From: a virus
Reading direction: 5' to 3' (one strand)
UHGV virus genome: UHGV-1360357
DNA length: 29,070 bases
Part shown: positions 1-15,389 of the stretch, piece after piece
Numbering within the stretch: the first letter of the stretch is position 1
Layout of the letters: each line of letters begins with the position of its first letter
Notes under the pieces: model-generated
The model's database searches: none
What the model saw: the letters and a program-made list of their open reading frames with translations, nothing else
What the model was told of the DNA's origin: nothing
Position numbers and translations under genes: made by a program

Positions 1-42
1 CAGAAGCAACGCGGAAAATCAATTCCAGCTTATTACGATTGA
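1..42 (+). CDS. 3' end of an upstream early-operon ORF (partial, last 13 codons, stop TGA at 40-42)
   Basis: Open frame running into the window from the left and ending at TGA 40-42; GAGGTGA Shine-Dalgarno for the next ORF overlaps its end. Confidence 0.25.
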   Translation, partial: QKQRGKSIPAYYD

Positions 43-50
43 GGTGAGCC

Positions 51-188
51 ATGCTCAAGAAAGTCAAACGCCGACTTTACAAAGAAGGTAGATATTCATG
101 CCAGTTGCCAAAATGCGACACAACAAAATGGAGTGTCGATGATTGGTGTAACTGGATAGATAGATACGGAACTTGGTGGAATAAATAA
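51..188 (+). CDS. small Cys-rich hypothetical protein (45 aa)
   Basis: ATG at 51 preceded by GAGGTGA RBS; 45 codons to TAA at 186-188; contains four Cys (C-x4-C ... C ... W-rich), possible metal-binding peptide. Not in the >=60 aa ORF track. Confidence 0.4.
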   Translation: MLKKVKRRLYKEGRYSCQLPKCDTTKWSVDDWCNWIDRYGTWWNK

Positions 189-242
189 CAGGTAACTTAA
201 GCGTATTTACTTTCGAAGCAAACAACTTATTTGAGGTGATAT

Positions 243-692
243 ATGGAAGAACAAGCAAACAAGATTCTCGTAGAACTACTGAAAAAAGCCAGTAATGGAA
301 TAGACGCGGCTGTTTCATTTAGCCAGGCACAGATTCCTGATGTTGTTCATCAGTTGCTGCTATGGAATATGGTTGACAGTCTGATTAAAACATTAATGGC
401 CATTCTAACAATCCCACTGGTTTTCTGGTTTATGAAGAAGCAGTGCCAAAGAGTTGAGACAGGTAAAATCGGTGATGAAGGATATTCATGGGAGAAAGGA
501 AATCACAAATACAGGCCGACAATGGTTTGGGATAGCAAAGGTGATATTAATCTTCTTATCATGCCATTGGTTGTAGTTTTGACTCTGTGGGGGATTTTTA
601 TTATTGGTGTAGTAACCAATATGACTTGGTTAAAAATTTGGCTGGCCCCAAAGCTTTACCTTATCGAATATGCAGCATCATTGGTTAAGTAA
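243..692 (+). CDS. hypothetical membrane protein (149 aa, two hydrophobic helices)
   Basis: ATG 243 with GAGGTGA RBS; two long hydrophobic stretches (LIKTLMAILTIPLVFWF and LLIMPLVVVLTLWGIFIIGVV) suggest inner membrane localisation; followed by a hairpin terminator. Confidence 0.6.
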   Translation: MEEQANKILVELLKKASNGIDAAVSFSQAQIPDVVHQLLLWNMVDSLIKTLMAILTIPLVFWFMKKQCQRVETGKIGDEGYSWEKGNHKYRPTMVWDSKGDINLLIMPLVVVLTLWGIFIIGVVTNMTWLKIWLAPKLYLIEYAASLVK

Positions 693-696
693 TTTC

Positions 697-722
697 AGGC
701 CGCATAGTCGGCCTTTATTTTT
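697..722 (+). terminator. hairpin plus T-run, putative intrinsic terminator
   Basis: AGGCCG-catagt-CGGCCT stem-loop followed by TTTATTTTT directly after the stop of the 149-aa ORF. Confidence 0.5.
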
Positions 723-3471: not shown

Positions 3472-4020
3472 ATGAATCACTTGATGGTTGACCTTGAAAC
3501 AATGGGCAACGGGCCATACGCGCCAGTTATTTCTGTTGGGGCGGTATTCTTTGACCCGAATACCGGAGAAACAGGAGAAGAGTTCTCGGTAAATATCTCG
3601 CTTGAGTCATCAATGCGATATCGGGCGCGTCCTGACGCTTCAACGATTTTATGGTGGCTGGAACAGAGTGAAGAAGCCAGAAAATCGCTAACCAGCAACA
3701 CTCAAGAGCTTTCAACGGCTCTTTCATGGTTATCTGAATTCATCATAAAGAACGCCAACCACAAACTCGTTCAGGTTTGGGGGAATGGAGCATCATTTGA
3801 CTGCGTTATTCTCCGCAACAGTTATTCGCTGACAGGGAAGCCAGTTCCGTGGCAGTGGTGGAATGACCGCGACGTAAGAACAATCGTCGAACTTGGGAAG
3901 GTAATAGGATTCGATCCTAAGCGAGATATGCCATTCAAAGGAACTCGCCACAACGCGCTTGATGATGCCATCCACCAAGCCAAATACGTTTCAGCGATCT
4001 GGAAAAAGTTAGCTAAATAA
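3472..4020 (+). CDS. DnaQ-like DEDDh 3'-5' exonuclease
   Basis: Exo I motif VDLETMG, Exo II GNGASFDCVIL, Exo III HNALDDAIHQAKY; 182 aa; AAGGA RBS. Confidence 0.85.
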   Translation: MNHLMVDLETMGNGPYAPVISVGAVFFDPNTGETGEEFSVNISLESSMRYRARPDASTILWWLEQSEEARKSLTSNTQELSTALSWLSEFIIKNANHKLVQVWGNGASFDCVILRNSYSLTGKPVPWQWWNDRDVRTIVELGKVIGFDPKRDMPFKGTRHNALDDAIHQAKYVSAIWKKLAK

Positions 4021-4037
4021 TCAACAGGAGAAAAACC

Positions 4038-4331
4038 ATGCCAGCGCCTCTGTATGGTGCGGATGACCCGCGCCGCTGTTCCGGCAATTCCGTATCGGAG
4101 GTGCTGGATAAATTCAGAAAAAACTACGATCGAATAATGTCTCTACCACAGGAAACGAAAGAGGAAAAGGAATTTCGCCACTGTATATGGCTTGCAGAGA
4201 AAGAAGAACGAGAGCGAATTTACCAGACATCAATCCGACCATTCCGCAAAGCCACATATACCCACTTCCCTGAAATTGACCCGCGCCTACGTAATTACCG
4301 CTCACGCTATGGCGCTATCAGTAATGACTGA
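4038..4331 (+). CDS. hypothetical protein (97 aa)
   Basis: ATG 4038 with AGGAG RBS; basic/acidic mixed small protein. Confidence 0.5.
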
Positions 4332-4341
4332 GGAATTTACC

Positions 4342-4506
4342 ATGAGAGGACTTGCATACAATCCCGGCACTCTTCCGGCAGAAATGATTATTCGCCAACG
4401 CATAAAGCCAATGCCATCGAGAGAGGAATTGCTTAAGAGAAATTCTTTTCCTTCAGTGAATCAAAACAAATATCTGAATGCGATGTGGCGGAGTGGGAAG
4501 AAATGA
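4342..4506 (+). CDS. hypothetical small protein (54 aa; alternative start 4324)
   Basis: In-frame ATG 4342 preceded by GAGGAA; the track ORF from 4192 overlaps the previous gene and was trimmed; stop overlaps the next start (ATGA). Confidence 0.3.
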
Positions 4507-4949
4507 AACAAATATCACTAATTGAGATGGATGGTTTTCTGAAAGGTAAATGCATCCCACGAGATTTAAAGGTTAACGAAACAAATGCTGAATATCTGGT
4601 GCGTAAATTTGCTGAAGCTGAGGCCAAGTGCGCGGCACTGGCGGTGGAGAATGCGGGAATAAAGTCTGCAATTCCTCAACTACGGGATATTGATGCTGAC
4701 AATGACAATATGGATGACGTATCTCTTGCTGAAGACTTCGGATTCAATCATGCAATAGAACGGATGAGGAGACAGATACCTGAAACCCCAGCCACCGATG
4801 CTTTTCTGGCTGAAGTGCGGGCGCAGGGTGTGGATTCAGCGATTAACACAGTCATTGCGATGATGAACCATCAGCATCCTGTCACATCGAAGGCAATCGA
4901 CATAATGCGCGTCCATGCCTACCAAATTCGCAAAGGAGTGCAGTCATGA
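4503..4949 (+). CDS. hypothetical protein (148 aa), early-region accessory protein
   Basis: ATG 4503 with GGAG...GAAGAA upstream and overlapping the previous stop; Ala/Glu-rich helical sequence. Confidence 0.55.
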
Positions 4950-5194
4950 GTACTCGTCGCAAAATTAACAAAATTCTGAAAGAGAAAGGCCTGACGGCTA
5001 ATGTCGAGTACGACGGAAGCGGTGCCGGTAGAGATGAATATGGTTGGTGGACCGTTACTTTCGAACCGGCATCTGCTGATTTTATTCGTCTTAAGCTGAA
5101 TGAGCCCGAATTCACTGGCTCGATAGAATTTTGCGAACTCGAAGATGGGTTTGAGCAGCTTTCGGAGTTACCCGCAGTGGAGGCCGCCCAATGA
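4946..5194 (+). CDS. hypothetical protein (82 aa)
   Basis: ATG 4946 overlapping the previous stop, AAGGAG RBS. Confidence 0.55.
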   Translation: MSTRRKINKILKEKGLTANVEYDGSGAGRDEYGWWTVTFEPASADFIRLKLNEPEFTGSIEFCELEDGFEQLSELPAVEAAQ

Positions 5195-5715
5195 GCAACA
5201 TCGACAAACAGGTGCTGCGTGAAAAGGCAGAGAAAGCAACGAGTGGTGTGTGGTCGCTCGAATATGGAGAGGAGAGATTTGATGCTGGTGATGCGCTAAT
5301 TCATCGTGAAGTTGTTGGATATCTTCCCATTTGCAGAATTGAAGGAGCGCATCCTGAAAGCGGTTTCGATGAAGATTTCCAAATGGAACAGCAGGCCAAT
5401 GCTGAATTCATCGCCGCAGCCAGTCCGGCTACTGTGCTGGCGCTGCTGGATGAGCTGGAGAAGATGCAGGCGCAATCGTCCAAATGGTGCGAAGCCTTCC
5501 ATAAAGCCGTTTCCGTTGGCGCTCGGTATGAGGAGCGGATTGCTGAACTGGAGGCTCGGGAGCAGAAGAATTTAGCGGAGGAGCGCCAACGTGTGATTGA
5601 TGGTCTTTGCACTATCGGTGAAACGGCGTGGGAAATTGAGGAGTACATGAAAGAATGGGACGCAAAGCACCCGCATGAAGCGGCCACCGCTGGCATTGGC
5701 GTGAAGGGGGAGTGA
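5191..5715 (+). CDS. Ead/Ea22-like protein
   Basis: 174 aa; contains the characteristic EQQANAEFIAAASPATVLALLDELEKMQ segment of the lambdoid Ea22-like family; GGAGG RBS, ATGA overlap. Confidence 0.7.
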   Translation: MSNIDKQVLREKAEKATSGVWSLEYGEERFDAGDALIHREVVGYLPICRIEGAHPESGFDEDFQMEQQANAEFIAAASPATVLALLDELEKMQAQSSKWCEAFHKAVSVGARYEERIAELEAREQKNLAEERQRVIDGLCTIGETAWEIEEYMKEWDAKHPHEAATAGIGVKGE

Positions 5716-5716
5716 G

Positions 5717-5917
5717 ATGGCTACCGTAACAGAAATTCGAGCAAAGCTGCGTGCCGGTGAAGTAGTGATTATGCCGGGGAATTCTGTATTCCTGTTCATG
5801 AGTGAATGCGAGCGCCACCTGGAAGGTGATGAATGCTACCACATCGAACCTCACTCTCATGGGTACTCAAAAGTTTTCGACCCTAAGCGGGCGAAAGGAG
5901 AACACCATGACAACTAA
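5717..5917 (+). CDS. hypothetical small protein (66 aa)
   Basis: ATG 5717 with GGGGGAG RBS; Cys/His-containing (C-x-R-H ... C-Y-H ... H-S-H). Confidence 0.5.
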   Translation: MATVTEIRAKLRAGEVVIMPGNSVFLFMSECERHLEGDECYHIEPHSHGYSKVFDPKRAKGEHHDN

Positions 5918-6434
5918 CAACCACCCGGCGCACGGCCCTGTATCACTCGATCGCCTGCACCAGATACGCGAAGTACTCAGCAAAGCAGCAGCACAAAGCG
6001 ACGGCGGTAATCTCGGCTACGCAATGGCTGATGCTGTCAAGGTGATTGATAAGGCTATTGCTGCGTTTAATGCGGAGCTTTATGTTCCTACCGTTCAGTG
6101 CTGGTCATGCAGAGAGGTTATTGAAGTTTCCGCAGTAGGTGACTGTGATGGTTATTGCCCGAAATGCGACTCGCCAATTGATCTCGATGAAGAGCCATAC
6201 GATGCCGCCATACTTCAGGCTGGCAACTCTCCGGTGATTCCGGATGGTTGGATAAGCTGTAGTGAGCGAATGCCGGATAAGTTAATTCCGGTAATGGTCA
6301 TGTATGAAGACGGTGAGATGTGGTCTGCAATGTGGAATGGCAATCGCTGGGATGATGGCACCGAATATCCGGATCCGCACTCAGTTACGCACTGGCGTGA
6401 AATGCCAGCAGCACCACAGCAGGAGGTGAAGTGA
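5907..6434 (+). CDS. DUF551-like protein with CxxC...CxxC zinc-ribbon (175 aa)
   Basis: ATG 5907 with AAAGGAGAA RBS (the track start at 5802 is an upstream alternative start overlapping the previous ORF); zinc ribbon CWSC...CPKC; C-terminal WISCSERMPD...HWREMP resembles the DUF551 domain common in lambdoid early regions. Confidence 0.65.
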   Translation: MTTNNHPAHGPVSLDRLHQIREVLSKAAAQSDGGNLGYAMADAVKVIDKAIAAFNAELYVPTVQCWSCREVIEVSAVGDCDGYCPKCDSPIDLDEEPYDAAILQAGNSPVIPDGWISCSERMPDKLIPVMVMYEDGEMWSAMWNGNRWDDGTEYPDPHSVTHWREMPAAPQQEVK

Positions 6435-6712
6435 TGTACTCCTTCGCGAAATATACGATTATTGACTGGATAGCCTTCCTTCAGGTTTTGCTCATCTGGT
6501 TTTATATGGCTTACAGGAGTGGACAGTGGATTGTCAGTGTATCCTGTAGCAAGGGATGGCGTTGGTGGAACCGAAAGAATAAAAAAGCGCTGGCCTTGGA
6601 TTCGTTTTACGAAGCATTCAATCTTAACAGTCTTCAGCCTGGTTCTGTCATTGTAGTCACCACTCAAAGCGGCATGACCATTCAGATTCATAAACCAAAA
6701 GAGGAAAAATGA
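6434..6712 (+). CDS. hypothetical protein (92 aa) with N-terminal hydrophobic segment
   Basis: ATG 6434 seven nt after AGGAGG; hydrophobic N-terminus (IIDWIAFLQVLLIWFYMAY). Confidence 0.45.
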   Translation: MYSFAKYTIIDWIAFLQVLLIWFYMAYRSGQWIVSVSCSKGWRWWNRKNKKALALDSFYEAFNLNSLQPGSVIVVTTQSGMTIQIHKPKEEK

Positions 6713-7259: not shown

Positions 7260-7478
7260 ATGTACTTGACACTTCAGGAGTGGAACGCACGCCAACGACG
7301 CCCAAGAAGCCTTGAAACAGTTCGTCGATGGGTACGCGAGTGCAGGATATTCCCTCATCCGGTTAAGGATGGAAGAGAGTATCTGTTCCACGAATCAGCG
7401 GTAAAGGTTGACTTAAATCGACCAGTAACAGGTAGCCTTTTGAAGAGGATCAGAAATGGGAAGAAGGCGAAGTCATGA
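7260..7478 (+). CDS. xis: excisionase Xis (lambda-type)
   Basis: 72 aa, MYLTLQEWNARQRRPRSLETVRRWVRECRIFPHPVKDGREYLFHESAVKVDL..., recognised as lambda Xis; overlaps the int start as in lambda. Confidence 0.9.
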   Translation: MYLTLQEWNARQRRPRSLETVRRWVRECRIFPHPVKDGREYLFHESAVKVDLNRPVTGSLLKRIRNGKKAKS

Positions 7479-8526
7479 GCGCCGGGATTTACCCCCTAAC
7501 CTTTATATAAGAAACAATGGATATTACTGCTACAGGGACCCAAGGACGGGTAAAGAGTTTGGATTAGGCCGAGACAGGCGAATCGCAATCACTGAAGCTA
7601 TACAGGCCAACATTGAGTTATTTTCAGGACACAAACACAAGCCTCTGACAGCGAGAATCAACAGTGATAATTCCGTTACGTTACATTCATGGCTTGATCG
7701 CTACGAAAAAATCCTGGCCAGCAGAGTAATCAAGCAGAAGACACTCATAAATTACATGAGCAAAATTAAAGCAATAAGGAGGGGTCTGCCTGATGCTCCA
7801 CTTGAAGACATCACCACAAAAGAAATTGCGGCAATGCTCAATGGATACATAGACGAGGGCAAGGCGGCGTCAGCCAAGTTAATCAGATCAACACTGAGCG
7901 ATGCATTCCGAGAGGCAATAGCTGAAGGCCATATAACAACAAACCCTGTCGCTGCCACTCGCGCAGCAAAATCAGAGGTAAGGAGATCAAGACTTACGGC
8001 TGACGAATACCTGAAAATTTATCAAGCAGCAGAATCATCACCATGTTGGCTCAGACTTGCAATGGAACTGGCTGTTGTTACCGGGCAACGAGTTGGTGAT
8101 TTATGCGAAATGAAGTGGTCTGATATCGTAGATGGATATCTTTATGTCGAGCAAAGCAAAACAGGCGTAAAAATTGCCATCCCAACAGCATTGCATGTTG
8201 ATGCTCTCGGAATATCAATGAAGGAAACACTTGATAAATGCAAAGAGATTCTTGGCGGAGAAACCATAATTGCATCTACTCGTCGCGAACCGCTTTCATC
8301 CGGCACAGTATCAAGGTATTTTATGCGCGCACGAAAAGCATCAGGTCTTTCCTTCGAAGGGGATCCGCCTACCTTTCACGAGTTGCGCAGTTTGTCTGCA
8401 AGACTCTATGAGAAGCAGATAAGCGATAAGTTTGCTCAACATCTTCTCGGGCATAAGTCGGACACCATGGCATCACAGTATCGTGATGACAGAGGCAGGG
8501 AGTGGGACAAAATTGAAATCAAATAA
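7456..8526 (+). CDS. int: tyrosine integrase Int (lambda-type)
   Basis: 356 aa; N-terminal arm-binding domain MGRRRSHERRDLPPNLYIRNNGYYCYRDPRTGKEFGLGRDRR, catalytic region with the conserved R...H-x-x-R...Y residues (HELRSLSARL, LLGHKSDTMASQY); recognised as lambda Int. Confidence 0.95.
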   Translation: MGRRRSHERRDLPPNLYIRNNGYYCYRDPRTGKEFGLGRDRRIAITEAIQANIELFSGHKHKPLTARINSDNSVTLHSWLDRYEKILASRVIKQKTLINYMSKIKAIRRGLPDAPLEDITTKEIAAMLNGYIDEGKAASAKLIRSTLSDAFREAIAEGHITTNPVAATRAAKSEVRRSRLTADEYLKIYQAAESSPCWLRLAMELAVVTGQRVGDLCEMKWSDIVDGYLYVEQSKTGVKIAIPTALHVDALGISMKETLDKCKEILGGETIIASTRREPLSSGTVSRYFMRARKASGLSFEGDPPTFHELRSLSARLYEKQISDKFAQHLLGHKSDTMASQYRDDRGREWDKIEIK

Positions 8527-8989: not shown

Positions 8990-10936
8990 TTAAAGAATAA
9001 TTCTTTCAACCTTCCAAGTTGCAGATCTACTTCCTGAAATTCCAACTCCATTTGAATCTTTGAGAAGAATTCTAAATGATGTTTCTGTTACCAAATCATA
9101 CGTTGCATTTATTGCTGCGCCATCTCCTATCGATATTGAGATAAAATCAGGCACAACTCCAAGTCCGTGAGTTATTATTTGTCCATTTGAATAAACCCCA
9201 GTTCCTATTTTAGTCGTTGCATACCCGGCATTGTTTGCAAGGACAACATTAACCGAATTTGCTCCTAATTTAGCAATCTTCCTATCAGATGAAATCTCTG
9301 TAGATTGTATTGCATTATTTGAAATAACTGCATCTTTTATAGCCCTGAAATCTCCAGGTGTTCCTGATACAGCATTAACAAGTATTGCATACTGCATACT
9401 TCTATCACTTCTTTTATTGCCGAAAGCATTACCGCAAATTGTTGTCCCGGTAAATCCAGATGCTCCCGTGTTATCAAGAAGAATTCCGCACCTATATGTA
9501 TTTGATGTATCAGAAGGCAAACCTATACCTCTTATGGAATTATTGGATACTATATTATTATCTGGCTTGACATTTGCATTATTGCAGTAAATGCGAATTC
9601 CAACATCACAAAATGCATCTAATACATTATCAGATATAACATTACCCGCTCCCCACACATCAATACCCATAAACGAATCAGCACCATCTCCAAAAAATTT
9701 ATTTTGAGTAACTATTGTTCCGCTACCCCTAATCAATATAGCAGGCCTTGGAATGCTTGAAGTCTTTTTGCTATCATTGTAGCCATGATTATCGTTTATA
9801 TGAGATTCCCCCCCCGCACTATCTATGCAGCAATTACACGAATCTATTATATTTTTATTTATCCTTACATAGACAGAATCGTGTTTTATACCTGTAATAA
9901 AATTTGATATGGAATTTGATACAAAACTAGTTGCCTTACATGGCAATGAAACGCCATGTATAGCGTCCTTAGACGCTCCTATGGCAACAAAATGTATCCC
10001 TGTAACAATTGCTGGGTTCTCATTAGATGATGTGTCACCTATGGTAATAGCAAAAGAATTCTCATCTTCAGGACCATCAATTGTTAATATCGTTTGTGGC
10101 GTATATCCTTGAGATATTTGCGATCCATTTCCTGAACCAAACCCTCTCATACTTACAAAAGATGGGATTCTTAGTTTTTCTGTTACTCTACAGTTGCCCC
10201 CCCAAAAAAATTCCTCTTTAACATGGGCAGCGGCCAGCATGATTGGAATTGTATCATCTTTAACTCCATCAAGCGTCGCTCCATAATTTCTAAGGTCATT
10301 GGTTTCATACCCATTTAAATAACCAATACATCTCCATCCTGTTGAGGTATATCTGGCAAATTTATCATCTGGGGGAACAGTAAAAGGAGGAACTGTCATT
10401 TCTCCTCCAGTTATTTCATTTTCATATACCCAAAACAACCCATCATAATCTTTGATTGCGCATCGGTTGTCTCGAATGATATTTTGCTTGTCATAGTTCC
10501 CACAATATGAAAAACCAGTTGCTAATTTCTGTAGATTTGTTCCTGATGCTGAGTTTATTAATGATGCGCCATTTTCGCTAGTTAATACATTATTTAGAGG
10601 GTCAGGATCATACTTCAGCACATTAGGAAAATAGAACTGCTGCGCACCGTACGCATCATAAACAGCCATAGAATGGCCTTGCACGGTTACGAATTTGGCA
10701 ATCTGTCCGTTATATGCAGGATACCCGCCAGCGTTAATGATGATTGGCTGTGCAACAGGAACGTGAGAACCGTCTTCATTCTCTACATAAACCTGAATCT
10801 GGTTTTCAGGATTTACCGGGTCAGTGTCAATTTTTCCGATATAAATTTTGCCATTGGCAACCGCTTTAAAAGAACGCGCCATAGTGAAGAGTTGCGAAGG
10901 CATGCTTACCACAACATTTGCGGTGATATCTGTCAT
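8990..10936 (-). CDS. tailspike protein (P22 gp9 family; conserved head-binding domain, divergent receptor-binding beta-helix)
   Basis: 648 aa; first ~115 residues ([58 protein letters not shown]...) match the P22/HK620-type tailspike head-binding domain; the rest is Asn/Gly/Ser-rich with beta-helix-like repeats but unrelated to the P22 endorhamnosidase domain. Confidence 0.9.
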
Positions 10937-13041: not shown

Positions 13042-13527
13042 ATGAAAAAATCACTATTAATTGTCCCGCTTCTGCTGGCTGGATGCGCAAAAGTAAGTGA
13101 CTACCAAGCAAGTTGCGAACAACGCTATCCAAAGCTTAGTGATATGGCTAATTGCCTTGATGCCAGCGTGAAGAACGACTCACGCATGGCATCAGCACCA
13201 ACACCTAAGCTGTATGTCCTTGCTGCGAAGATGCTCGGGCAAGGTGTCGATCAAGGCAAGATAAGTGACGCACAGGCAAGACTTGAGCTTCAGAATCTTT
13301 ATGTTCAATTACAAAGCCAAGAACAAGCCCAACAAATAGCACAAAGCCAAGCATTCCAGCAGGCTTTATTGAATTATCAGGCTGTAAACACAATGCAAGC
13401 GATCGAGCAAAAAGCGCGCCAGCCTGTTATAACTCAACCTTACCCAACACGCGTTGACACATATACAAACTGCAATTCAGGTTTTGGAAACACGGTAACA
13501 TGCAACAGTAGCAGTAATATCAGGTAG
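13042..13527 (+). CDS. lipoprotein (lipobox LLAGC, +2 Ala), 161 aa, Gln-rich
   Basis: MKKSLLIVPLLLAGC lipoprotein signal; residue after the Cys is Ala (not Asp), consistent with outer-membrane sorting; Gln-rich helical middle, Cys/Asn-rich C-terminus. The RBS is weak or distant. Confidence 0.65.
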   Translation: MKKSLLIVPLLLAGCAKVSDYQASCEQRYPKLSDMANCLDASVKNDSRMASAPTPKLYVLAAKMLGQGVDQGKISDAQARLELQNLYVQLQSQEQAQQIAQSQAFQQALLNYQAVNTMQAIEQKARQPVITQPYPTRVDTYTNCNSGFGNTVTCNSSSNIR

Positions 13528-13541
13528 TTATATCTTATCTT

Positions 13542-15389
13542 TTATTGCTGTTCTGCTGTAATTTGGCTTGAAAGTATAGGGCGTATCGCATTTGCAGCAT
13601 TATTTAGCGCTCTTTCATAGGCTGGTGTTCCTGCTTTGGTGTTTGCCAAACGTAAGAGAGCATTCCTTGCTGCTTTGGACTCATACAAGCGCATCATTGC
13701 ACCGAAACCAGCCTCAAGCCCCATTGATACGCCAAGAGTCGCAGTTGCGCCAATCGTCCTTATCCTGTTGGCTTGCGATTGCCCCGTCTGAGTTACTACA
13801 TTTGCGGTGTCTGACCTTGCTGTTTGCTGCAGAACTTCATGAAGAGCATCAAGTTCTTTCATGTGCTTTCCAGAAAAAATAGTGTTGTAAATTTCACCGC
13901 CTGACTGAGATTTCAGCTTATTAACTTCAGTGATGAACTTGGCTGGAGAGTCACCGGCCTTTTCCGCTATTTTGCTGACGTAAGCTGCACGCATAGCATC
14001 TTTCCCTTTATCATCCAGTGCGCTCCAGATTCGTTTCACGTCAGATGGTTTTCTGCTTAATACAACGGTATTTATAAGTTCAGGACTGGCTTCACTGCTT
14101 GCCTTGTTGAGTTTGTTAGCAATGTTTTTATTAAGCACCTTATTATAAACGTTTGCATAATCGGAATTTGCTTTAAGGTATTTTGCTGCGTCTGATGCAC
14201 CGAGGTTTTTAGCAACTGCGTTACGAAGGTCTTTTGACATTGCATTCTCTACCATATTGGTAGCTGCTTTTGCCTGGTTGGGGAAGACCATAGCATCTCC
14301 CTGAACATTAGATCTAAATGCTGTTCTGTGCTGACGCAAGAGATCAAACGTAACATCCAAATCAGTTGCAGGGTTTGCTAATTCTTCACGTAGGTTACGC
14401 AAGGATGTAAGCAGGCTTTGATTGGCAGACGTCCCAAGTCGTTCCTGTCTTGCGATCGCTGTATTCAGAGCATTCATGGTATTTGTGGTATCAACTGCGG
14501 CATTACCCATTTTATTGGTGACGTCATTGATAACAGCGCCAGCGGCATCCTTCCTCCCCCTTAACGTGGTGGTCAGAGATTTCACCACATCATCAGGGTT
14601 GTACTCACCAAAACGGTCAAAATAATTACTTACCAGCTTACTACGCGTTGCATATTGCTCCGCTCGCTTTGAGCCTGTCCCGAGCAAAGCCCCCTCGGCA
14701 TCCTGAGTAAGGCCGCGAGTGAAAGCATTTTTCGGCGGGATAACATCAGATGTCATTGGTGTCACGCCCATCGATTCTGATGTGGCAATTTTCTTCGCCA
14801 CTTCTGGCGCAATATCACCTTTTATAGCCGTTATTCCACGCCCTATTCCCTTTGCTGCGGCGGAAAGAACACCCTGAGCGGCAAGGTTAACTCCGGCATT
14901 TTTAGCTGCATTTTGTGCGAAATCGCCTTTCTGATTTGCGGCCTCTGCCAGTGATCCAATAGCCATGCTTCCTGCCGTTCCAACTCCTGGAACTAAATAC
15001 CCACCAATTGTTTCACCGGCTTGTGCGTAGGGGTCTGTCGGTCTGTCTACTGGACGATAAACATCATCCAAAACCTTGGGTCCACCAAGCCCCTGACTGA
15101 TTGCATTAATCAGACTTGCGCCACCCTGCAATACGTCAAATGGTATGTTTACCAGACCACGACCAGCCTGTTCTGCAATTTGCCCTGCACTTTGACCACC
15201 AGTGAGCCAATCGCCAGCTTGTTGCATCAATGATGGTTCTTCCCGTGTTGGTGCATTATTGTCCTGATTAACTGTTTGTTGCTGAACAGCCTGACCAGCA
15301 AAATACTCATCAATGGCGGCCCCAATATCTTCCGTGCTCGTACCATCAGGGAAGGTAAATGTCTTACCGTTTGCAGTTACTTTCATCAT
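13542..15389 (-). CDS. ejection (injection) protein, P22 gp16 homolog
   Basis: 615 aa; N-terminus (M)[32 protein letters not shown]; size and position match P22 gp16. Confidence 0.8.

Follow-up and report, generated by a model that had tools for sequence, protein, structure and literature searches.

The DNA considered here, called the window in what follows, is the complete stretch of 29,070 nucleotides (nt) of the virus genome UHGV-1360357, and the element in question is a small gene near its left end together with the hairpin that follows it (Table 1). The open reading frame (ORF) extends from 243 to 692 on the + strand, stop codon included, begins with ATG and encodes 149 amino acids (aa), exactly as an earlier note on this DNA had proposed. 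A Shine-Dalgarno sequence is located 4 nt 5' of the start codon, and equivalents are present in the phages HF4s and Oslo (GAGGTGA in both) and CUS-3 (AAGGTGA). It is nearly certain that the product is a two-pass membrane protein and that this is a genuine gene under selection, more than a chance ORF, since the protein matches the PHROG 3054 family over its full length and since the ratio of non-synonymous to synonymous polymorphism (pN/pS) is 0.07-0.30 everywhere but in the second transmembrane (TM) segment. The family is very large and phage-specific; it has been catalogued already but is uncharacterised, and the window gene is an ordinary member of it.

The match to PHROG 3054, for which no function is recorded, has an E value of 1.1e-63 and links residues 1-149 to positions 1-137 of the 137 in the profile. 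Annotated members include gene 34 of Sf6 (49% identical with near-identical ends, BLASTP E 1e-37), ECRS218_0047 of CUS-3, HF4s_0037 (a 'TM helix-containing protein') and gp220 of phi92, while the 512 close homologues in the protein database are all called 'hypothetical' and have no Pfam domains. A profile of 16 homologues, searched against 1.84 billion cluster representatives (clusters at 50% identity), detected 2,464 clusters at E<=1e-3 and 1,098 at E<=1e-10, with lengths of 70-184 aa among the 150 clusters listed. In sequenced phages, tblastn found the family in 175 records. The temperate P22-like carriers include CUS-3, N7, HF4s, Oslo and several Salmonella prophage-derived phages; other carriers include phi92-like myoviruses, the N4-like Ithacavirus (Shigella phage B2 and FSL SP-058), many Vibrio phages and the Pseudomonas phages Bjorn and Lyrsu02. 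The hosts include Escherichia, Salmonella, Klebsiella, Vibrio and Pseudomonas, and the virion types are unrelated. Furthermore, a full-length allele as in the window occurs in 130 of 5,426 complete E. coli genomes, and 245 of them contain some match. Both temperate and virulent Gammaproteobacteria phages thus carry the family.

By eye, no homology to known proteins had been recognised, and profile and fold searches, too, failed to link the protein to a characterised one. Pfam, NCBIfam and PADLOC scans of the window protein gave no match even at E<=1. When 110 members were scanned singly against Pfam, scattered spurious TM matches appeared, with no family matched by more than four members, and a second indexed search with a 110-sequence profile returned no informative name. 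A sequence profile search of PDB led only to chance TM matches to G-protein-coupled receptors. Foldseek found no match in PDB and at most two apparent relatives in BFVD, both functionally unnamed (a protein of Pseudomonas phage Bjorn and one unnamed entry). PHROG 3054 is one of the larger phage membrane-protein families without a Pfam model, a solved structure or an experiment, and it is present in the model phages Sf6, CUS-3 and phi92.

The two long hydrophobic helices that had been noticed are found at approximately residues 42-64 and 103-126, where the best 19-mers reach Kyte-Doolittle values of 1.87 and 2.69, respectively. Both segments are strongly hydrophobic throughout the family (mean best 19-mer about 2.3), and the idea of a weakly hydrophobic, dynamic TM1 resembling a signal-arrest-release segment, as in pinholins, was rejected for this reason. 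The helices are flanked by tails whose conservation was judged in alignments of 110 and 141 sequences. The first 41 residues (MNEQ...AL..LL.KA..G.D.AV.F.QAQIPDVI.QLL.W) and the last 22 (WL.IW.APKLYLIEYAASL.K) are nearly invariant, and the window protein contains both the N-tail motif (QAQIPDV..QLL.W) and the C-tail motif. Both tails stay nearly invariant even among members that are just 30-40% identical overall, while TM1 and TM2 vary widely across the family, as does the loop between them, which is 10-67 aa long depending on the member. In a set of 49 distinct close alleles, pN/pS is 0.16 in TM1 and 0.30 in the loop, between the values of the tails and that of TM2 (Table 1), so that the reading frame is under purifying selection. 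TM2 and the loop are the fastest-evolving parts within the hairpin.

An AlphaFold2 (AF2) model calculated with 110 diverse sequences had a predicted local distance difference test (pLDDT) score of 90.2 and a predicted template modelling (pTM) score of 0.68; it replaced an earlier, poor run on a shallow alignment of 16 sequences (pLDDT 64.6). Helices are placed at residues 2-68 (the N-tail being continuous with TM1), 106-125 (TM2), 128-134 and 136-148 (C-tail), and the loop segment is of lower confidence with small beta-bridges. As modelled, the protein is a TM1-loop-TM2 helical hairpin that bears conserved N- and C-terminal helices. Charge statistics were derived from 142 aligned sequences, the query and 141 family members. 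On average the N-tail carries a net charge of -3.65 and the slightly basic C-tail one of +1.0; lysines or arginines number 0.06 on average in the ten positions that precede TM1 and 2.64 in the ten that follow it. Because of this distribution of charges around TM1, the positive-inside rule predicts a cytoplasmic loop and two periplasmic tails. The topology prediction that had been suggested as a check on the protein therefore yields two passes with both ends on the periplasmic side.

Table 1. Position and basis of the features at the left end of the window
Feature	Coordinates	Strand	Basis and remarks
3' end of antiterminator N gene	1..42	+	last 14 codons, read in frame; peptide ends ...QKQRGKSIPAYYD, then stop codon
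45-aa Cys-rich DUF5484 protein, homologue of Sf6 gene 36	51..188	+	PF17583 E 2.5e-12; phrog_1871 E 1.6e-22
Shine-Dalgarno GAGGTG	233..238	+	sequence; equivalents in HF4s, Oslo and CUS-3
Coding sequence, 149-aa two-pass inner-membrane protein, PHROG 3054 family	243..692	+	ORF, profile match, pN/pS
Codons 1-41, acidic N-terminal helix	243..365	+	nearly invariant; pN/pS 0.12; predicted periplasmic
Codons 42-64, TM1	366..434	+	hydrophobic; sequence variable across family
Codons 65-102, basic loop starting KKQCQR	435..548	+	predicted cytoplasmic; AF2 pLDDT 72-75
Codons 103-126, TM2	549..620	+	fastest-evolving segment; Kyte-Doolittle up to 2.69; pN/pS 0.89
Codons 127-149, C-terminal helix	621..689	+	nearly invariant; pN/pS 0.07; predicted on same side as N-tail
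Putative intrinsic terminator: stem 697-702/709-714, 6-nt loop, T-run 715-722	697..722	+	scan, conservation

The contrast between constant tails and a variable membrane part is also visible at the DNA level when window positions 243-692 are compared with the corresponding genes of Sf6 (L090, 2072-2494) and CUS-3 (L005, 3001-3423). DNA identity over the first 41 codons is 95-97% (97% versus Sf6), while the middle 86 codons cannot be aligned (39-40% identity in nucleotides, 21% in amino acids). E. coli genomes such as UTI89 likewise match only the two ends of the gene. In P22-like phages the same pair of tails thus encloses at least two membrane cores that are unrelated to each other, a 'type A' core in the window, HF4s and Oslo and a 'type B' core in Sf6 and CUS-3. 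Judged from these alignments, a recombination junction lies at the boundary of N-tail and TM1, and the membrane core has been exchanged by recombination. The last 22 codons show a different pattern: the protein is 86-91% identical, the DNA just 77-80%, with 8 synonymous differences (against Sf6, 86% protein and 77% DNA identity). Because the protein is conserved while the DNA has diverged, the C-tail is kept constant by selection and not by recent common descent.

The window belongs to a P22-like phage. Its - strand encodes a tailspike (8990-10936), a gene-16-type DNA transfer protein (13542-15389) and the remaining virion proteins; an integrase gene is located at 7456-8526. On the + strand, the terminal part of N and a DUF5484 gene precede the membrane-protein gene (Table 1). 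The same N C-terminus closes the N-like ORF at 5540-5800 of a metagenomic locus, L010, and gene 36 of Sf6 has the same position as the DUF5484 gene. Downstream of the hairpin follow two small ORFs, a second terminator (1273-1294), a 138-aa ORF, a third terminator-like site (1763-1782), cIII, kil, Erf/Rad52 (2240-2947), SSB, a 3'-5' exonuclease and Abc2. With N on one side and these genes on the other, the placement in the early operon that had been claimed is borne out. The membrane-protein gene lies between N and cIII, in what is an accessory slot in lambdoid phages, including this P22-like one. In the P22 record this slot contains sieB/esc, ral, orf78, orf87 and gene 17, in Sf6 it contains genes 36, 35 (ral) and 34, and in lambda, too, accessory genes (ral, sieB) are found there. 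The lambdoid members of the family resemble the window gene in having the same position after N and ral, with the same terminator 3' of them.

Four bases after the stop codon begins the hairpin AGGCCG-CATAGT-CGGCCT (697-714), followed by TTATTTTT at 715-722. The terminator scan gives a stem of 6 bp with five G-C pairs. Its folding energy of -9.7 kcal/mol (z -1.7 versus shuffles) is unexceptional by energy alone. However, of 73 close relatives 70 have a hairpin with T-run directly 3' of the gene. In Salmonella phage Oslo the structure is equivalent, although the loop differs and the stem contains a G-U pair. Given the modest folding energy, it is this conservation that leads us to take the terminator, which the earlier note had seen at the same place, as real. 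The G+C-rich hairpin, the U-tract and the conservation in relatives together identify 697-722 as a predicted intrinsic (rho-independent) terminator.

Which transcript ends there can be considered with the help of L010, which encodes an identical (100%) protein and shows the region 5' of the window start. The order in L010 is cI (4274-4975), a bidirectional terminator (5006-5027), a pL-like promoter (TTGACT-17-TACTAT, 5101-5129), N, the DUF5484 gene, the membrane-protein gene and then a terminator at 6455-6472. This is the first + strand terminator 3' of the pL-like promoter, and for this reason the window hairpin is best read as a putative tL1-type, or tL1-equivalent, first terminator of the pL operon. 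Like lambda tL1, it would be the first intrinsic terminator on the operon strand 3' of pL and N; in contrast to lambda, two extra genes (DUF5484 and membrane protein) are found between N and the terminator. A consensus scan and inspection by eye found no sigma-70-like promoter upstream of 243, including 188-243, and none was found in L010 between N and the membrane-protein gene. In HF4s the start of the gene lies 8 nt beyond the stop codon of N. Among 74 related loci, N or an N-like gene is found upstream in 63 and ral directly upstream in 15, and the downstream side of the 74 loci is mosaic, with lambda-type kil/gam/bet/exo, Erf-type and other genes. The claim that the gene has its 'own terminator', as a sign of an autonomous transcription unit, was abandoned in view of the lack of an upstream promoter, the spacing in HF4s and the gene order in L010.

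Lambda tL1 is overridden by N. By analogy, transcription from pL would stop at the hairpin as long as N is lacking, so that N, the DUF5484 protein and the membrane protein would be immediate-early products, and in the presence of N the modified polymerase would read past the hairpin into the rest of the pL operon. Both N read-through and termination at the hairpin are extrapolated from lambda biology. The DUF5484 and membrane-protein genes are placed on an N-independent transcript because both precede the first terminator after pL, and the presumed immediate-early unit would run pL-N-DUF5484-membrane-protein gene-terminator. In a repressed prophage the gene would be silent. A position before the first terminator is usual, not universal: CUS-3 has an additional terminator between ral and the gene. 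For annotation this means that the terminator is better described as the end of a predicted immediate-early transcript than as part of a private unit.

The N-to-cIII region has some further features. Besides the hairpin discussed above, there are two extra hairpins on the operon strand, at 1273-1294 (-13.2 kcal/mol) and 1763-1782 (-9.9 kcal/mol), and the three terminator-like hairpins cut the region into three short cassettes, each ended by a terminator. The G+C content is about 0.37-0.44 in this region versus about 0.46-0.50 in the recombination genes downstream. The DUF5484 protein encoded at 51-188, directly 3' of N and on the same predicted immediate-early transcript, is rich in Cys and Trp, and the annotation of the homologous gene 36 of Sf6 notes a similarity to T4 Orf55.4. 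Directly 3' of the terminator lies a 92-aa ORF (745-1023, +) that matches phrog_1273, of unknown function. Its C-terminal motif AAAPDLLEALQ recurs in a different protein, of 99 aa, found at this position in 10 related loci.

The location and the membrane nature of the product make it tempting to label the gene 'SieB-like', and the earlier note named SieB among the membrane proteins of this slot; under such a label the product would be a prophage-expressed superinfection-exclusion or abortive-infection factor with a transcription unit of its own. The genomic slot is indeed that of sieB in lambda and P22, and in both cases a membrane-associated accessory protein is encoded and, in the window, a terminator follows. 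However, we regard this identity as highly improbable. SieB of P22 has 192 aa and is encoded on the opposite strand, antisense to pL, with an annotated promoter of its own, whereas the window gene has none of these properties: no promoter was found for it, it is co-linear with N on the pL strand and it would be repressed in lysogens. SieB is expressed from the prophage and has an internal Esc self-immunity product, neither of which applies to the window gene. In profile comparison hhalign gave probabilities of only 0.33% and 0.31% against SieB of Oslo and P22, respectively. Moreover, Oslo carries sieB and a gene of this family side by side. Since many members occur in virulent phage groups, and the family is found in late structural operons as well, a SieB-like role in the prophage cannot be the general function, and the label should be corrected in annotation.

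The surroundings of the gene in other genomes are very diverse. In phi92 it is situated in the early cluster before an AAA ATPase gene, in the N4-like Shigella phage B2 it adjoins the gene of a YadA-anchor/collagen-repeat protein near a dUTPase gene, and in one Vibrio phage it lies beside a DUF2800 nuclease gene. In Vibrio phage 1220 g2 a lone member, followed by its own terminator, lies on the opposite strand, with the tail sheath/neck terminator genes on one side and the tail-completion (Neck1) gene on the other. One siphovirus has it between head-completion and tail genes, and another locus between lysis-like and tail genes. In three P22-like environmental phages it is located immediately upstream of gp10, within the accessory insert gp4-gp10 of the late operon, and some members lie beside repressors. 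When 142 neighbour proteins from 25 diverse loci were compared with PHROGs, 182 families were matched, none of them more than three times; repressors, a sigma factor and head-tail adaptors are the recurrent kinds. A conserved neighbour or operon partner was rejected, the AAA ATPase, the DUF2800 nuclease, the YadA-like protein and others being mutually unrelated. The family therefore seems to consist of a solo, freely relocating accessory gene without a conserved partner, which is tied to no single module or time of expression. With respect to the definition of a moron, a terminator of its own follows the gene in the window and also in Vibrio phage 1220 g2, L093, L094 and L096, while a promoter of its own was found neither in the window nor in L010. 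Distant members that stand alone on the strand opposite to both neighbours must have their own promoter.

Several details of these other loci deserve mention. In Shigella phage B2 (L006) the next gene (3473-4462) encodes collagen triple-helix repeats and a YadA-like outer-membrane anchor, which is a trimeric-autotransporter-like protein in a virulent phage. In the P22-like environmental podoviruses the members at the end of the insert are found at 4377-4829 (L093), 6001-6453 (L094) and 6001-6429 (L096), and in L093, L094 and the short contig L095 the start of the member overlaps the stop of a hypothetical gene encoding 166-184 aa. In the siphovirus-like loci L092 (6447-6998), L098 (5447-5998) and L101 (5480-6031), a gene for a 183-aa protein comes after the member. 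This protein is probably the source of the three neighbour matches to phrog_4603 ('alpha-2,3-sialyltransferase'); in that case a further accessory gene directed at the envelope would lie between the modules for head and tail.

Two transmembrane segments in a small phage protein also bring to mind the control of lysis, for instance by an antiholin-like or lysis-inhibition factor in the inner membrane. The residence of some members in late operons, in one locus near a weakly holin-like gene, fits such a role. The window gene, on the other hand, is separated in operon terms by about 25 kb from any lysis cassette and, as part of the pL early operon, is predicted to be transcribed with N from time zero, and neither the protein nor 110 relatives gave a holin or antiholin match in Pfam or PHROGs. 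TM segments mediate the interactions of holins; in this family, in contrast to class II holins and pinholins, they vary widely, TM2 being the least conserved part, and holins themselves are too diverse to be recognised by one invariant partner motif. A timing function is thus quite unlikely.

Small, solo membrane-protein or lipoprotein genes that can be placed anywhere in temperate and virulent genomes are known from phage exclusion, and the present family offers a parallel to them. Examples are sieA of P22 (PMC10883804) and imm/sp of T4 and cor (PMC11436027). P22 SieA is a small inner-membrane protein that acts alone and is non-essential for the phage; its TM helices number three or four by prediction, its FxRYPxEAxxFNK motif is cytoplasmic and its targets are the ejection proteins of P22. 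The sieA gene, situated between gene 16 and mnt, has its own promoter and is expressed in the prophage (PMC10883804). T4 Imm is an early product of a virulent phage (PMC11436027). The window protein resembles SieA as a small solo inner-membrane protein, and it is this functional model that we favour. HK97 gp15 is similar in being a small membrane protein that works solo, encoded by a moron that ends in a terminator inside a structural (tail) operon, like the members in head-tail clusters. The llp gene is likewise among the genes that act on phage entry or on the envelope of the infected cell.

These likenesses do not extend to the sequences. The window protein has just two TM helices and no FxRYPxEAxxFNK motif, and hhalign assigned a probability of 0.26% to a relationship with P22 SieA, 0.97% with HK97 gp15 and 0.31% with a Vibrio phage protein annotated 'immunity to superinfection', which served as comparator for Imm. 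Proteins of the gp15/Imm type differ also in length (62-83 aa) and by the lack of the conserved long N-terminal helix and of the C-terminal helix. Homology to a named exclusion protein (SieB, SieA, HK97 gp15 or the Imm-annotated protein) was rejected on the basis of these probabilities, which range from 0.26 to 0.97%.

With all due reserve, we suggest that the protein might be an exclusion or envelope factor that acts during the lytic cycle at the periplasmic face of the inner membrane. This possibility, tentative as it is, is preferred because the gene is solo and relocatable, occurs in early or late positions and is kept by virulent as well as temperate phages. The conserved tails would come together as a small module of helices on the periplasmic side of the inner membrane, and the protein would work alone, acting via these tails on a conserved step at the envelope. 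The effect might be a block of DNA entry by a secondary phage during the lytic cycle, or a protection of the envelope of the infected cell. Such a function would resemble that of T4 Imm, HK97 gp15 or Cor, without common ancestry.

A number of observations weigh against this proposal. Among the exclusion proteins compared, no characterised one shows similarity to the family in sequence, profile or fold, and literature searches (family identifier, locus tags, Sf6 gp34, superinfection-exclusion and moron terms, a screen of phage accessory genes) brought up no mention of the family. The topology is predicted from the positive-inside rule only, with a C-tail that is slightly basic. The promoter scan was a simple consensus search, which a weak or non-sigma-70 promoter could escape. 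Where members belong to late operons, as they do in some phages, the timing of expression suits exclusion poorly. SieA and other known injection blockers each act on a single injection machinery (PMC10883804), whereas the tails of this family are nearly invariant across podovirus, siphovirus and myovirus delivery systems and across different hosts. As a consequence of this invariance, a conserved host target or a purely structural role fits at least as well as exclusion.

The invariance of the tails leads to a rival that is almost as likely as exclusion, although still rather unlikely when taken by itself: a host-takeover factor, the tails of which would bind a conserved host machine of the inner membrane or periplasm and remodel the cell to favour the production of phage, with nothing being excluded. 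Possible machines are the divisome, peptidoglycan synthesis, secretion/insertion and FtsH/HflKC. Kil, which acts on FtsZ, and CIII, which acts on FtsH, would be parallels. The window gene has its operon in common with kil and cIII and is predicted to be expressed immediate-early, and the near-identity of the tails in phages of Escherichia, Salmonella, Klebsiella, Vibrio and Pseudomonas with unrelated virions would be explained by a conserved host partner; the presence of the gene in virulent phage groups is also in agreement with takeover. What speaks against it is that the gene is dispensable and patchily distributed and shifts between early and late operons, and that Pfam and other searches disclosed no similarity to known host-directed phage proteins.

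Counter-defence is a further rival, and one to which we attach a low probability. The protein could neutralise membrane-acting abortive-infection effectors or an immunity located in the envelope and in this way protect membrane integrity, much as T4 rII counters RexAB. The gene adjoins anti-defence genes: ral is directly upstream in 15 related loci, and also in Sf6 and CUS-3, and abc2 is found downstream in the window. Predicted immediate-early expression, the occurrence in virulent and temperate carriers, the exchange of the membrane core by recombination and the nearly neutral evolution of TM2 could all be accommodated. Nevertheless, neither homology to anti-defence families nor a PADLOC-related signal was found. 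A periplasmic location is predicted for the conserved parts, while for most known effectors sensing or assembly takes place from the cytoplasm, and the conserved tails do not show the rapid evolution that is expected of an arms race.

To return to the exclusion or envelope factor, it could be imagined, though this is a doubtful generalisation, that the family represents an unrecognised pan-phage class of solo inner-membrane effectors, in which a freely evolving TM hairpin, swappable by recombination, displays an invariant periplasmic two-helix module that binds one conserved envelope machine of Gammaproteobacteria. P22-like, N4-like, phi92-like and Vibrio phages would use this module from the first minute of infection, be it to shut out further DNA or to disable an immunity based in the envelope. 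If true, this would be a new and very common mechanism of exclusion or takeover with a single host target. The predicted expression at time zero with N, the near-invariant tails across hosts and virions and the solo, relocatable nature of the gene make the family a tractable target.

Finally, the window encodes another protein that is of interest with respect to exclusion. A 161-aa ORF at 13042-13527 (+) begins with a lipoprotein signal (MKKSLLIVPLLLAGC...) and matches phrog_6067, of unknown function. It adjoins the gene for the gene-16-type DNA transfer protein on the opposite strand, which corresponds to the slot and orientation of sieA in P22; a lipoprotein at this place might instead be an exclusion factor resembling Cor/Llp.

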